Translations under genes and position numbers: made by a program | Notes under the pieces: generated by a model | Database searches by the model: none | What the model saw: the letters and a program-made list of their open reading frames with translations, nothing else | What the model was told of the DNA's origin: nothing | Origin: Gammaproteobacteria bacterium | GTDB taxonomy: Bacteria > Pseudomonadota > Gammaproteobacteria > GCA-002705445 > GCA-002716945 | Assembly (NCBI GenBank): GCA_038142325.1 | Contig: JAYQJW010000002.1 | Location: forward strand, 491,324 to 555,323 | Direction of reading: 5' to 3' | DNA: 64,000 bases | In this document: piece by piece, positions 58,175-64,000 of the stretch | Position numbering within the stretch: the stretch's first letter is position 1 | Layout of the letters: each line of letters starts with the position of its first letter

Positions 58175-59230
58175 ATGAATCTAATACTAGATAATGCACA
58201 TTTTGACTTGATTACTCTGAGCCTTGCTGCTGTATTTTTACTTACAATAAAAAATAAAATTATTAATGTCATATTATCTTTGTCAAAAAAATCAAATACA
58301 GTTTATGATGAACTTTTACTTCATTCAGTAAAAACACCATCTTCATATTTAATTATAATTGGTTATTTATTGCTACTTCTTAATTATCTCAAAAATGAAA
58401 AAATTATAATTTATGATTTCCATTTATCATCATCAATATTTATTTTGATGGTCATATTAATTTCGTGGTCAATCCAAAGAGGTTTAAACTTTTATATTGA
58501 TTCTAAACCTTTTTTAAAAAATATCTCTGAAGAAGATGACGCTACTTTAGTATCCGAGACATATGAAATAGTTGTAAGAATAATTAAAGTTATTGTTGTA
58601 GTGATTGCAATTTTATTAATCATGCAAGAATTGGGATTAAGCATATCTGGTCTTTTAGCATTTGGGGGCGTTGGAGGTTTAATAGTAGGTTTAGCTGCCA
58701 AAGACCTTCTTTCAAATTTCTTTGGTGGAATGATGATCTTTTTTGATCGACCATTTAGGGTTGGTGAATTTATTAAATCTCCAGATAGAAATATTGAGGG
58801 CATTGTTGAAAAGATTGGATGGAGATTAACAGTTGTTAGAACCTTTTCAAAAAATGTCCTTTATATTCCAAATACTGCATTTTCAAGCATTATTGTTGAA
58901 AATGCTACACGAATGTCTAATAGAAGAATAAACGAGACAATAGGAATTAGATATGATGATCTTAAAAAGATGAACCTTATACTTAATGATGTCACCAATG
59001 CTTTGGAAAAAAATTCAAAAATAGATCAGACTATTAAGCCAAAAGTATATTTTAAAAGCTTTGCGCCTTCTTCATGTGATTTTTTTGTTTATGCATTTAC
59101 AGTTACAAAAGATTGGGAAGAATTTCTATCTATTAAACAGGGTATTCTATTTGAAATCGCAGAAATTATTGAAAATCATAATGCTGAAATTGCCTACCCT
59201 ACATCAACAGTATTTATCAATAAGAACTAA
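58175..59230 (+). CDS. MscS-family mechanosensitive channel
   Basis: GLLAFGGVGGL, DRPFRVGE, EGIVEKIGWR, YIPN, EIAYPT. Confidence 0.93.
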   Translation: MNLILDNAHFDLITLSLAAVFLLTIKNKIINVILSLSKKSNTVYDELLLHSVKTPSSYLIIIGYLLLLLNYLKNEKIIIYDFHLSSSIFILMVILISWSIQRGLNFYIDSKPFLKNISEEDDATLVSETYEIVVRIIKVIVVVIAILLIMQELGLSISGLLAFGGVGGLIVGLAAKDLLSNFFGGMMIFFDRPFRVGEFIKSPDRNIEGIVEKIGWRLTVVRTFSKNVLYIPNTAFSSIIVENATRMSNRRINETIGIRYDDLKKMNLILNDVTNALEKNSKIDQTIKPKVYFKSFAPSSCDFFVYAFTVTKDWEEFLSIKQGILFEIAEIIENHNAEIAYPTSTVFINKN

Positions 59231-62200
59231 CACGTAATTTCAGATATTACTTTTATGATTTCAGAACAAATATCTGAAAAACTTCCATCTGATTCAATCG
59301 AGTATTTGATTTGATTACTATTGATAATTTTAATTCTTTTTGAATTTGTATATTTGTCTACAAGAGTTGTAGTGTCTATTGAATTTTCATCATTTAGGAT
59401 TATTACAACATTATCTCTATTAATTTTTATTCTTTGCGCACCTAATGCGCCTCCTGCAATTTTTACTCGGCTAAGATCTAAGAGATTTAACAAGTGATCA
59501 GGTATAGGGCCAAATATATCAATTAAATTCGTCATAATTTGATTAATGTCATGATCATTTGTAGCGCTTGAAATATCCTTATAAAAATCTAACCTCTGAA
59601 ATATATCCTCTATATAATCTTGAGGAATTAATGTTGATTCGAACGCATCAATTTCAACTTGATTCGTATCATCTGTTTCATCAATATTCTTAAGCCGATT
59701 AACAGCACGTGAGAGCATAGAGGTATACATGCCATAACCAATTTCAGTAATTTGTCCGCTTTGCTCCTCTCCTAAAAGTTCACCAGCACCTCTAATTTCT
59801 AGATCATGACTAGCTATATCCAGTCCTCCGGCCAAACTATTAGTGTTTATAAATGCATCTATTCTTTTTTGAGCTTCATTTGTAAGTTTTTTTTGATCAT
59901 CTATAATCATTCCTGCGTATGCTTGTTTTGCACTTCTTCCAACTCTACCTCTAATTTGATGAAGTTGAGATAAACCAAAGTTTTGAGCATTATTTATTAT
60001 AATTGTATTTACATTAGTCATATCTAAGCCGCTTTCAATTATACTTGTACAAATAAGTATGTTTATTTTTTCACTTAAAAAACTATTCATCACTTTTTGA
60101 ATTTGTTGTGTTGACATTCTTCCATGAACATTATCAATTTTGTAATTTGAATTTATTCCTCTTAAATATGATATTTCGTCATTCATAGTTTCAATTCTGT
60201 TATGAATATATAAAACTTGTCCACCCCTAGTGATTTCACGATCTATGTATTCTCTAATCTCACTTTCTGATTTATTAATAATATTCGTCTGTATATTTTT
60301 TCTTCCTATAGGAGGAGTGTTAATAATACTCATATCTTTTATTTCTGAGAGAGCAGTATTAAGAGTTCTAGGAATAGGTGTTGCAGTTAATGTCAAAACA
60401 TCGATATTATTTTTAATATTTTTAATAGACTCTTTATGTTTTACGCCAAATTTATGCTCTTCATCTATAATTAATAATCCTAAATTTGCATATTTAATTT
60501 CTTTATTCAATAATGCATGAGTACCGATTACTATATTAGTTTTACTATTTAACAAATTATTTTTGACATCTAACTTTTCTTTTTGAGAAACTGCTCGTGT
60601 CATTAATTCAATTTTAGTATCATAATTTATAAATCTTTTTGTAAATGTATCGTAATGCTGTTTAGCTAGTACAGTTGTAGGCACTATAACAACTACTTGT
60701 TTATCATTATTAATTGCAATAAATGCTGCCCTCAGTATCACTTCTGTTTTGCCGAAACCTACATCTCAACAGATAACTCTATCCATAGCTTTTAACGAGC
60801 ACATATCTTCAATCACTTGATTTATGGTGCTTAATTGGTCATCTGTTTCAACATATGGAAATAAATTACAGAATTTTCCATATTCATGTGTATCTAAATT
60901 AAATTTATAACCTTTATTTAGTTCTCTTTGTGCTTGAATAGTCAGTAATTCAGCAGCAATATCCTCAATTTTCTTTTTAGCTCTTTGTTTAATTTTTAGC
61001 CATCTATCTGTACCTAACTCTGAGAGTTTAGTGTTGATACCAGTATTTCCAATATATTTTTGTATTAAAGATATAGAAGTAATAGGCATATAAAGATTAT
61101 TATTATCTGCGTATTCAATCTTGACTAATTCTGTTACTTTATTTTCTATATTCATGATTTCAAGACCTTTATATCTTCCTATTCCATGTTCTTGGTGAAC
61201 AATATAATCATTGAATTTTATTTGAGTAAGGTTATCAATAACTGATGATTTAAGTATTTCTTTAGAAGATAATCGAGTTTTAATAAGCCCAAAAAGATCA
61301 TTGGAGCTGACATAGATAATTTTTTTATTATTATCAGTAAATCCTTCGTTTATATGTTCTCTCATTATTTGAATTTTATATCTTGAAATACTAATATTAT
61401 CCGTTTCATAGAATTCAATATCTTGAGATTTTAGATAGTCTGTTAATGTTTTATAATTGTCATTTCTCTCTATAAAAAATATAAAATTATATTTAGAATT
61501 AAAAAGAACCTTTTCTAAATTTATAAATGGATTTTTATAATTATAATTGATAGCCAATGACGGCAAAGTTGTGTAGCTAGATTTATGAAAATTCTTTTCT
61601 TTCGTATAATCAGATGCTATAAAAAAATAATTATTATTGACAATATGTTCAACATCATTTTCACTTATTATTAGTTCATCTGGTTTAATAAGATATCTAT
61701 TAAATATTTCATTATCATAGATTTTATTTAATGTATTTCTAAAGTCATTATATTCTTCGTGTAAATTTTTGTTCATGAAGCAAACTAAATTATTACCAAG
61801 CAATGATATTAATGACTCTGATTTTTTCTGAAGAGTATAGGAATTAGGTTATGAATATAATTTTTACTATCATTTGAAATAATCTTCTCATACTCAATAT
61901 CTTCGATATATTCAGAATCAAAATATTTTTTTACGTTTGCTTTATAAAATTCAATATTTTTCTGATCTAAGTGATAAATGCAACCAGATGTGAGTATGCC
62001 GCTGTCAATATCATTTTTTGTTAATTGAGTAGTCGAATTAAATATTTTTAAAGATTCTAAAATATCTTCAAAAAAATTTACTCTTACAGGATCATGTGAA
62101 GATATAGAAAAGAAATCTACTATTGATCCTGATATTCGATATTGACCAGGCTCAATAACCTTAGATGTTTTTTCATAATTAAAGGATTTTAATGTATCTA

Positions 62201-62597
62201 TAAGTTCGTTATATTTTATGTATTTGTCAATTTTTTTCCATGATTTTGATATTTCATTTAATTGTGGAATTTTATAAAATATTGATCTGCAGGATGTAAT
62301 TATTATTTTGTTGTCAGCATTATGAGATAACTCTATCAAACATTCATATCTATCTTTAATTATATCTTTGTCAATCGCGACGCTGCTATAATCATCAAGT
62401 CCATAATTTGGAAATTTAAAAATTTTTTTTGCTTTATATAGTTTTGATAATTCATTATATAAAGCATCAATTTGATGATTATTGTCTAAAATTATTAGTG
62501 TATTTTGATATTTTTTTGATAGCTCATCCATTTCAATGATATACGAGGAGCCAACAATATTTTTTACAACATTGAATCCTTTATTAAGTTGTTTCAT
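59227..62597 (-). CDS. mfd: Transcription-repair coupling factor (frameshift ~61825; in-frame TGA at 60766-60768)
   Basis: RID (VHQEHGIGRY), MDRVIC*DVGFGKTEV, IDEEHKFGV, TATPIPRTL, QIRGRVGRS, DLEIRGAGELLGEEQSG; N-terminal UvrB-like part divergent. Confidence 0.94.
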
Positions 62598-62603
62598 AAT
62601 TTC

Positions 62604-62638
62604 AAAAAAAAAGCAGCACATTTAATCATGTGCTGCTT
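62604..62638 (-). terminator. Rho-independent terminator of the microprotein-rhodanese unit
   Basis: AAGCAGCACAT-N6-ATGTGCTGCTT 11-bp stem followed on the minus strand by a long T run; 17 nt after the rhodanese stop. Confidence 0.85.
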
Positions 62639-62655
62639 AATCGGATAATATTGTT

Positions 62656-63338
62656 TTATTTAACGGTATTGAATCCTAAGTTTTCCCAGTTTTGCATACC
62701 ACCACGGTACCATTTAATTTTATTTGCTGGATAACCGTATCTTAATAAGACTTTTGATGTTATTAGGTGATTGACCGCACCACATTCCGTTACAAAACAG
62801 AACTAGGGTTTTTGCATCATCAAAATAGAAAAGTCCATTTTGCTCTTTAGCGCCAAATTTACTAGTCATTAATTCAGCTATAGATAGTGGATCTGCACCT
62901 TTCCTTTCACTCAAAAGAGTCCAAGGTAAATTCACGGCACCTGGAATTGTTCCTTTAGCAACCCAATCAGGTGTTCTAGAAGTCTATAAGCATGATCTCT
63001 GAGCCATCTGGCATCTTTTGCCCCTTACTCATCATTACAGCATAATGAATTAATTCTTGTTCACCAAGAGTTTCAATACCTGGTCTTAATTGCATTGGTT
63101 GAATGCAAAATGGCGGACAAGGTCTAGACGTTTTAGCAAAAGCTGGATTAACTGTTGCACTGTTATCTTGGTTTCTCATGATTTTATGTTCACCAACTGA
63201 TACTGAAAGTCCTAACTCAAGTGAATTTGGACCATCTGCTTTTGAAATTGCAACTGGTTTACCTGCAAATGCAGAAAACGATACAAGAACAAAAGAGAGT
63301 AGAGCAGCTGATAATACGTTATGTTTAATTTTTAACAT
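62656..63338 (-). CDS. Secreted rhodanese-domain sulfurtransferase, SoxL-like (frameshifts ~62980 and ~62743)
   Basis: Reassembled ~226 aa: signal peptide (..SAFA), SRPCPPFCIQP, IDSRTPDW..GTIPGAVNLPW, LFCNGMWCGQS, WYRGGMQNWENLG; GGAGGAG SD. SoxL resemblance is from memory of the family. Confidence 0.85.
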
Positions 63339-63353
63339 ATCTCCTCCCATTAA

Positions 63354-63506
63354 TTATTCACAATCTGGCTCTTCATCATCTGAAGACTTTTCTTTCTCAT
63401 CCTCAGCAAATATTATATTTGAGGTTATTTCATCATCTGCAAACGATGGTTGAGTTATTGAAATACTCATAATAAGCATTGCTAATATTAAAAAGTAGTT
63501 TCTCAT
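63354..63506 (-). CDS. Secreted acidic microprotein, 50 aa, C-terminal EEPDCE (not in ORF track)
   Basis: Hand translation: MRNYFLILAMLIMSISITQPSFADDEITSNIIFAEDEKEKSSDDEEPDCE*; AAGGAG SD upstream; Sec-type signal ending SFA; 15 nt from the rhodanese start. Confidence 0.8.
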   Translation of the reverse strand: MRNYFLILAMLIMSISITQPSFADDEITSNIIFAEDEKEKSSDDEEPDCE

Positions 63507-63611
63507 TGTGTAAAAATCTCCTTTATTTTAAGCACTGATTGAATTAAGGACATTATAATGGTTACTTATGAGATTTGACATATATTTTTATAATAATCAC
63601 TAAATTATTGC

Positions 63612-64000
63612 TTAATTTAGAAAATTCCATGATCTTTTTGCTGTATTTTGATCACGAAAATCAATTTTATGATCAACTACAGATTGTTTTGATTGGCATT
63701 TTTTTACAATATTACCATTAGAATCTGTAATGAAAGCTATTCCCCCAAAACTTTATAGTTTGATTTACTTCTGTTTCATTACCAATTCTATTGGCAACAA
63801 TCATTGGTGTATTTATCATAAGACTATTAGCTTTGATGACATCAAACCATTTATGCTGTTCATTTTTTAAGTTAAAAATTCTCTTTTTGTAAAAGCAATG
63901 TCCAATTGCAGTTGGACAAATTATTAAGTTGATATTATTTTTTTTTCATAAATGCATATGAATTCATATGCCACTGATCCCAACATATCATTACACCAAT
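63612..64000 (-). CDS. Carbon-nitrogen hydrolase, N-carbamoylputrescine amidase-like, 3' part (frameshifted; truncated by window edge)
   Basis: Hand translation: IGVMICWDQW, CPTAIG, ANRIG, FWGNSFITD, ending RSWNFLN*. Confidence 0.8.

Follow-up and report, generated by a model that had tools for sequence, protein, structure and literature searches.

Within a 64,000-nucleotide (nt) stretch of contig JAYQJW010000002.1 (the window), a minus-strand open reading frame (ORF) of only 50 codons, 63506-63354, lies directly upstream of a gene for a secreted rhodanese. What could so small an exported protein do beside a sulfurtransferase? We found that many marine sulfur oxidizers and some ocean phages encode such a tiny, unnamed exported protein, and that its only constant feature is an acidic tail with one Cys. 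The chances are about even that the peptide is a scaffold-free Cys-persulfide carrier, which would receive its sulfane sulfur from the rhodanese within the periplasm, an acceptor role that we infer.

A 50-residue secreted protein precedes the rhodanese

The predicted protein of 50 amino acids (aa) starts with MRNYF, and its N-terminus looks like a Sec-type signal by eye, with cleavage after SFA. The mature peptide that follows, DDEITSNIIFAEDEKEKSSDDEEPDCE, has 27 aa and is very hydrophilic, with 13 Asp or Glu and 2 Lys. Its single Cys is residue 49 of the precursor. The original prediction described this ORF with its Shine-Dalgarno (SD) sequence and lone penultimate Cys and, after a gap of 15 nt, a rhodanese with an SD of its own and a terminator-like hairpin. 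All of these elements are present. The features of the small gene are as follows.

63354..63506, minus strand: small secreted protein, 50 aa, with a signal peptide (aa 1-23), the short hydrophobic stretch NIIFA, an acidic linker and the EEPDCE tail
63357..63374, minus strand: EEPDCE tail, with the Cys49 codon at 63362-63360
63518..63523, minus strand: SD-like AAGGAG of the small ORF, 11 nt 5' of its ATG
63552..63581, minus strand: sigma-70-like promoter match ATGTCA-18-TATAAT, 10/12, a consensus match only

Promoter-like sites were seen 39 times against 31.6 expected, so the match at 63552..63581 is weak.

The acidic Cys tail is conserved beside the enzyme

Conservation was analyzed at the best 80 of 575 confirmed GTDB loci, which were matched with the N-terminal part of the enzyme. 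Under a strict rule, an ORF ending [DEQKA]-P-[DE]-C-[DE]-stop had to lie just upstream on the same strand. Such an ORF was found at 73 of the 80 loci; where the upstream sequence was 500 nt or longer, the count was 71/77. A looser rule added three more (EPDC, EPDCDE and EPDC), giving 76/80; the loci without a tail call were L014 (a gap of Ns in the ORF), L041 (51 nt upstream), L052 and L080. As a control, the loose rule was applied to 359 other long frames in these loci, and it found a tail upstream of none. Thus, the pairing is not due to chance, and conservation of the ORF with its terminal E-P-[DE]-C next to homologous rhodaneses was borne out. In the host's genus, the tail was present in 9 of 12 other genomes and in all seven of at least 90% completeness. 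The lineages with a tail include SUP05-type bacteria, Arenicellales, Thiotrichaceae and sediment bacteria.

E46, P47 and C49 are invariant among 61 aligned members, which were picked by motif. Distinct tail proteins with a recognizable start numbered 83 (41-124 aa), and because they too were chosen by motif, its invariance there is partly circular. A profile search yielded 311 clusters at 50% identity. In all of the 150 hits listed, a Cys stands within the last three residues, and 113 of them have a second mature Cys. A selenocysteine variant of the tail was considered and rejected, as none of these 150 hits looks truncated there (the profile favors Cys). The codons of the tail vary synonymously (TGT 35, TGC 37). 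When the window was compared with a near-identical assembly (L001), eight codons of the peptide gene differed, seven of them non-synonymously and none within the last 11; no purifying selection is therefore visible on the body of the peptide.

The bodies are diverse. Some are short acidic linkers, others are long disordered linkers of 40-85 aa after a lipobox-like Cys (L067, L108 and L135, by eye). A five-Cys body is predicted as three helices (predicted local distance difference test, pLDDT, 86), and a three-Cys form ending EPSCD precedes tandem enzymes in L149 and L155. Selection acts only at the Cys-tipped acidic tail, and the bodies range from disordered to helical to lipoprotein. The small Cys-rich bodies were of Arenicellales type (L074:4680-4868, five Cys) or SUP05 type (L149:3599-3856 and L155:5222-5455, three Cys). 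With an odd number of Cys, one thiol would stay unbound if the remaining ones form pairs.

We searched for a known family to which the peptide could belong. Nothing above chance was found for the 61 members in Pfam or NCBIfam, including the Sox models (0/61), and PHROGs gave no match above chance for the window peptide or for one phage copy. SgpA-D sulfur globule proteins have Gly/Pro/Tyr-rich repeats; the peptide is acidic, not rich in these residues, and matches no model. A search of the ESM Atlas returned only clusters without names, at 0.79-0.81, which are no more than a lead. Searches by motif and topic, in which subscription journals are thinly covered and supplementary proteome tables fall outside the scope, found no published description of the peptide. 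This agrees with the original prediction, which knew of no named family for the peptide. The description of it as unannotated holds insofar as it is unnamed, but homologues have already been called in public sets as 'hypothetical protein'.

The enzyme is a four-Cys rhodanese of the SoxL family

The rhodanese gene and its signals are arranged as follows.

62656..63338, minus strand: secreted four-Cys rhodanese, 226 aa when intact, assigned to the SoxL family from PF00581, the fold and the SoxL position of relatives
63341..63347, minus strand: SD-like GGAGGAG of the rhodanese, 2 nt before the ATG at 63338
63105..63119, minus strand: CPPFC motif of the N-terminal extension, with C74 and C78, conserved without exception among 99 aligned members; model confidence is low at residues 76-78
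62777..62794, minus strand: CNGMWC active-site loop, with C182 at the catalytic position and C187 where other rhodaneses have Arg
62603..62638, minus strand: intrinsic-terminator-like 11-bp hairpin plus T-run, which closes the two-gene unit

In the window, a single extra base near 62981 and another near 62748 split the gene over three frames. In L001, the rhodanese is intact with 226 aa (P0001). RNA contigs from public metatranscriptomes are without both extra bases, and the flanking genes, mfd (59227-62621) and a carbon-nitrogen hydrolase gene (63575-64000), are likewise shifted by single-base errors. Both frameshifts are therefore assembly errors. A pseudogene was also considered, and was rejected on the basis of the intact L001 copy, the RNA contigs and the alignment of the extra bases.

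The intact P0001 matches PF00581 with 50.3 bits (cut-off 22.2; E 3.5e-13), and its residues 85-225 adopt the rhodanese fold in the predicted structure (pLDDT 76). The best structural match reached Z 8.3; sulfurtransferases superposed with a root-mean-square deviation (rmsd) of 2.6-3.0 over 107-118 aligned residues. A sequence search of PDB gave no match below E 0.03. C182 aligns to the catalytic Cys of 3d1p/yeast YOR285W (CASGKR), and C187 to the Arg of the YOR285W CxxGxR loop. C182 and C187 are invariant in the 99 aligned family members, as are C74 and C78. By its profile score, its fold and the Cys at the start of the loop, the enzyme is a member of the rhodanese superfamily. An HCx5R loop is the mark of Cdc25/Acr2-type phosphatases or arsenate reductases; it was not present in any of the family rows printed, where the loop is CNGMWCGQS, without Arg.

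Three family members lie just downstream of soxXA (L153, L178 and L146). The order in L153 is soxX-soxA-[SoxK::rhodanese], and the fusion is 45% identical to P0001 (E 1e-59). In Allochromatium vinosum, the series soxX, soxA, soxK, soxL corresponds to Alvin_2168-2171 (PMC3368242). Since these members occupy the same position after soxXA(K) as A. vinosum soxL, we regard the enzyme family as the SoxL family. Read in this way, the window enzyme is a SoxL paralogue, the SoxL identity resting on gene position. The host copy is outside a soxXAK-L operon, with soxA at C2:461 kb and the rhodanese at C2:554 kb, and in a quick tree it branches apart from the soxXA-linked copies. In Thiocapsa, paralogues of SoxL with 61% and 43% identity have been described (PMC10892978). 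A Chromatiaceae-wide search for the SoxL operon covered one genome only.

The quick tree had 115 rows (every third tail locus of L001-L080, with 8 broken or partial rows left out). In it, 41 of 44 tail rows fell into one group of 53 (Shimodaira-Hasegawa-like approximate likelihood ratio test, SH-aLRT, 85). The other tail rows were in a five-row group (SH-aLRT 100), including L149 once its EPSCD tail is counted, and two soxXA-linked rows formed a separate pair (SH-aLRT 97). Tail-linked enzymes have Lys146 in 74% of cases versus 7% of the others, and their mean net charge is +3.7 versus +1.3. This difference fits an acidic ligand but may be due to descent alone.

Two other forms of the enzyme were seen. 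The SoxK-SoxL fusion at L153:4236-5198 (G153) would anchor the rhodanese on the SoxXA complex. Tandem double-rhodanese forms of about 450 aa (P0272-P0280) occur in Thiotrichales/Beggiatoaceae-type records, and in their second domain CPPFC is changed to CPPxC. A search for fusions of tail and enzyme gave nine hits among longer proteins; the three inspected were tandem double rhodaneses without a tail, in a long-protein search that is weak evidence of absence.

Tail genes are found in genomes with Sox

The enzyme family is large, comprising 7994 of 8000 scored candidates. It was present in 66 of 300 Gammaproteobacteria, of which 62 have SoxA (one below cut-off) and 50 have DsrA, and in 3 of 167 genomes without SoxA and DsrA. 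When 65 family-bearing genomes were examined (G135, a fragmentary match, was left out), a tail gene was found in 20. Co-occurrence with sox genes, named in the original prediction as a check, was observed: SoxA is present in all 20, DsrA in 18 and SoxC above cut-off in two, counts that overstate the association because these genomes are kin and largely belong to one or two branches. Of the 23 family genomes tested that have no tail, seven contain SoxC.

The tail was also searched for on its own. Using a strict DNA pattern on 301 evenly drawn Gammaproteobacteria, we obtained matches in 14 genomes, of which 12 also hold the enzyme; a reversed pattern matched five genomes of the same 301. The genome matches numbered 18: 13 adjoin the enzyme, three are extra copies in such genomes, and two without a signal peptide were set aside as chance. 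The extra copies (L123, L130 and L131, from G267, G110 and G290, which also hold the pair) have no enzyme within 1.5 kb.

A scan of metagenome contigs detected at least 119 stretches with a tail, 80 of them with flanks. The enzyme was downstream in 51 of these 80 (at 82-327 nt), 21 were phage-like, and eight were others. One of the latter (L305:274-1695) has the tail gene directly before soxY-soxZ and a cytochrome c gene and, further upstream, a gene that is HpaB-like; within 1.5 kb of this tail there is no family rhodanese. Another precedes a gene for a secreted protein that is DsrE-like by eye, without a Pfam hit. The remaining loci comprise two near NapC-type cytochrome genes, three that end within 231 nt and one without a signal peptide. 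In L338:642-1124, a gene for a Met-rich, repetitive, membrane-anchored protein lies upstream of the tail gene.

Phages carry the tail without the enzyme

The tail pattern matched 53 viral contigs. A signal-bearing protein ending EEEPDCE is encoded by 33 of them (30 whole, three partial or with another start), and the other 20 matches, without a signal peptide, were set aside as chance tails. The phage proteins mostly have a short hairpin-like body. Their neighbors are T4-like (exonuclease, ribonucleotide reductase, endolysin), at a guanine-plus-cytosine (GC) content of 0.29-0.38. No match to the phage tail was found in GenBank phages.

A one-Cys TusE/DsrC-like gene was detected in 2 of the 33 tail-bearing phage records, including the only record longer than 25 kb; the others are 1-13% complete. 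Since TusE/DsrC-type genes are common in phages (PMC8190135), this co-presence is weak support. According to passages of the same source, phages favor sulfur carriers over enzymes, and their known sulfur auxiliary genes are dsrA, dsrC/tusE, soxC, soxD, together with soxYZ (PMC8190135).

The two TusE/DsrC-like genes (L248:1483-1788 and L249:983-1791) encode the terminal Cys only, and the one in L249 follows an IscA/ErpA-like gene (by eye). A phage-like contig (PVBE011735919.1, L335:1100-1704) has a tail gene followed by one for an ordinary signal-less rhodanese of 108 aa with a CHLGIRS loop, unlike the cellular partner. Two other signal-less phage families (71 aa with CxC/CxxC, and 133 aa) also end in EEPDC[DE] (L199, L204, L198, L200 and similar) and were treated as chance.

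A possible route for sulfane sulfur and competing explanations

Rhodaneses pass sulfane sulfur via a Cys-persulfide; in SoxY and DsrC, sulfur is carried by a near-terminal Cys. On our analysis, it is evenly balanced whether the peptide would be an exported, largely unstructured acidic arm, with its Cys one residue from the C-terminus and no folded body. We also see equal chances for and against the tail Cys being the acceptor of this enzyme, which would form a mobile or tethered persulfide pool. The route would begin with SoxXA and SoxB, which by the established pathway would oxidize thiosulfate and leave the sulfane atom on SoxY; given the gene content of the host, without SoxCD, no further oxidation would follow. 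Judging from the fold and the reported role of SoxL, C182 of the rhodanese would then take the SoxY sulfane or polysulfide. From there, sulfur might be passed to the tail Cys as a persulfide or short polysulfide, and the second loop Cys and the CPPFC pair might resolve or reset the site. Least securely, the loaded peptide, either diffusible or lipoprotein-tethered, could feed storage or a YeeE/SoxT-type importer leading to cytoplasmic rDsr. For phages, the tail protein would be one more sulfur-carrier gene. SoxL is reported to transfer the sulfane atom from SoxY, in passages that name no acceptor (PMC3368242). In organisms without SoxCD, the path of the SoxY sulfane to storage or the cytoplasm is called unknown, the cytoplasm being reached 'by unknown means' (PMC11582611). 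The tail peptide is a concrete candidate acceptor for this step.

Besides the kinship of the tail genomes, several results weigh against a carrier loaded by this enzyme. Among 83 full-length family rows of the class sample, 60 have no upstream tail gene, the three members at the soxXA position all lack it, and none of 28 additional loci, taken from other parts of the phylum, has a true tail. The enzyme type therefore works without the tail peptide. Some members of the family are found in settings that have no connection with sulfur oxidation. A tail gene is present in only about 18 of the 87 genomes with SoxA and DsrA; sulfane transfer is therefore not generally solved by the tail. At most loci, that of the host included, the pair is located among housekeeping genes, away from sox. 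The 33 phage copies have no family enzyme nearby, and none was found in the viral-contig scan or in five records. Finally, the second Cys of many forms could tie up the tail Cys in a disulfide. The proposal of a peptide-enzyme system thus holds for a conserved, Sox-linked pairing, but the enzyme belongs to a known family whose members mostly lack a tail, and the peptide also occurs apart from it (before soxYZ, as extra copies and in phages).

Other functions would place the Cys in a different chemistry. The peptide might be a thiol-redox partner without net sulfur transport, a periplasmic thiol that keeps the rhodanese or SoxY reduced through mixed disulfides and is recharged by thioredoxins, following a SoxS/SoxW-like logic. 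Thioredoxin/TlpA-like genes flank the pair at 17 of 80 loci, two pairs of Cys are present in the enzyme, soxYZ is preceded by a tail gene in one case, and SoxS targets SoxYZ (PMC11582611). However, the constant partner has the fold of a sulfurtransferase and not of an oxidoreductase, the host pair has no thioredoxin neighbor, and the one-Cys forms cannot make an internal redox pair; we consider this function rather unlikely. A metal-binding or metal-chaperone peptide, acting apart from sulfur transfer, would fit the acidic run with its Cys and the forms with His or more Cys. It is very improbable, as the distribution tracks Sox, only one Cys is constant, and no recurrent metal transporter or metalloenzyme was found among the 34 neighbor clusters scanned.

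A role in sulfur storage, in which the peptide would cap or solubilize polysulfane chains (R-Sn-R) or coat periplasmic globules while the enzyme elongates the chains, has only a slender chance. The tail genomes are mostly of the sulfur-storing type, without SoxCD and with rDsr, the hydrophilicity of the mature peptide would suit such a role, and the sulfur of globules is believed to consist of chains that carry organic end groups and arise by an unknown enzymatic process (PMC8232776). Against this, no tail gene was found in most SoxA+DsrA sample genomes or upstream of L080, the only Chromatiaceae locus examined, and no Pfam or NCBIfam model resembled the peptide. Equally doubtful is a regulator or pseudo-substrate, whose tail would bind the active site to inhibit or tune the enzyme, with phage copies as mimics that redirect host sulfur flux. 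The strict co-location, the short linear motif, the phages that keep the tail without the enzyme, and the Lys146 and charge bias (confounded by descent) agree with this. Yet lipoprotein forms with their 40-85 aa linkers suit a swinging arm, and an invariant near-terminal Cys is the usual build of a carrier.

Relation to known sulfur carriers and sulfurtransferases

Like the enzyme, SoxL (Alvin_2171), the periplasmic rhodanese-like sulfurtransferase of the truncated Sox system of A. vinosum, is a secreted single rhodanese domain, and relatives with CPPFC and CNGxWC lie directly after soxXA(K) in hosts without SoxCD. The window copy differs in being away from sox, on another branch of the tree, and accompanied by a tail peptide that soxXA-linked copies lack. 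SoxY (SoxYZ; TIGR04488, PF13501) resembles the peptide in its periplasmic location and in a flexible arm that bears a reactive Cys close to the C-terminus; it is present in the same organisms and adjacent in L305 and L133. The tail peptide, in contrast, has no immunoglobulin-like body, SoxZ partner or GGCGG, has a Sec-type instead of a Tat signal, ends in EEPDC[DE] and matches no model. DsrC/TusE (PF04358), which is phage-borne (PMC8190135), shares the Cys one residue from the C-terminus. DsrC/TusE proteins are, however, cytoplasmic and folded; PF04358 gave no match among the peptide members, which carry signal peptides.

Sud of Wolinella succinogenes (1qxn) superposes on the enzyme with Z 6.2 and an rmsd of 3.3 over 109 aligned residues at 22% identity, and we know of no peptide partner for it. 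It is likewise a periplasmic rhodanese, acting on sulfane sulfur at low concentration, but has a single Cys (PMC6378623). TIGR03865 (PQQ_CXXCW) also describes a rhodanese with a two-Cys active-site loop; membership was rejected at 27.2 bits against a cut-off of 128.05 (E 2.9e-6). That family is linked to pyrroloquinoline quinone (PQQ) catabolism, and its rhodanese is paired with a SoxYZ-like carrier, TIGR04557, which is a folded SoxYZ fusion.

The enzyme represents a branch of paralogues, not studied before, within a known family. If the carrier reading holds, the peptide would work like SoxY or DsrC while being a member of neither. It is possible, if somewhat doubtful, that the tail protein, made on ribosomes and exported, stands in for a low-molecular-weight thiol, as a sulfur carrier that lacks a body, links truncated Sox to storage or import in abundant marine sulfur oxidizers and has its own rhodanese branch. 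The copies in T4-like marine phages would then be a new class of secreted auxiliary metabolic gene acting on the periplasmic sulfur pool of the host. They would extend the sulfur auxiliary genes to a secreted microprotein that annotation pipelines cannot name.

Transcript coverage, host genome and gene neighborhood

Expression, which had been predicted, was analyzed with public RNA data. RNA contigs of four runs from three studies cover 62606-63541 and thus both genes, and one contig of 789 nt (62646-63432) bridges them. The runs were picked with this stretch, and such contigs neither prove a single transcript nor give its level. For the same reason, the lack of RNA cover of the flanking genes in all four runs was not used as evidence. 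Terminator-like sites numbered two in 60000-64000, including one starting at 62638 (shuffle mean 0.9). The original prediction also called strong SDs scarce elsewhere in the window; as a loose check, AAGGAG occurs 17 times and GGAGGAG five times on its two strands, counted regardless of start codons.

The host genome (1.1 Mb, 98% complete) is that of a streamlined marine bacterium, and the pair is retained in it as well as across several lineages. It encodes soxA-Z-Y-X, soxB, dsrAB, dsrEF and dsrC and, next to the sox cluster, a transporter of the YeeE type; searches for SoxC and FccB found neither. A single copy each of the family enzyme and the tail is present, located between the carbon-nitrogen hydrolase gene and mfd. 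A horizontal origin of the pair was considered because of its GC content (0.356 versus 0.301 for the window), but its neighbors are common to 22-34 of 80 loci.

In a sediment clade, the pair heads a cluster with genes for thioredoxin, a secreted DsrE-like protein (weak, E 0.003), a DUF3530 protein and a TlpA-like protein, each at 16-19 of 80 loci. A soxX gene lies within about 5 kb of the pair in five loci. The order in G267 (L133) is dsrE2, a gene for a FadL-type outer-membrane protein, DUF3530, tail, rhodanese, soxX, soxY, soxZ and soxA.

Host soxB has an internal stop in this indel-prone assembly. By the host sox cluster (C2:458-460 kb, L279:1432-3592), the YeeE-type transporter gene is followed by one for a protein with an alpha/beta-hydrolase fold. 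The DUF3530 proteins, which are encoded beside the pair at 19 of 80 loci, have an AHSCG elbow.

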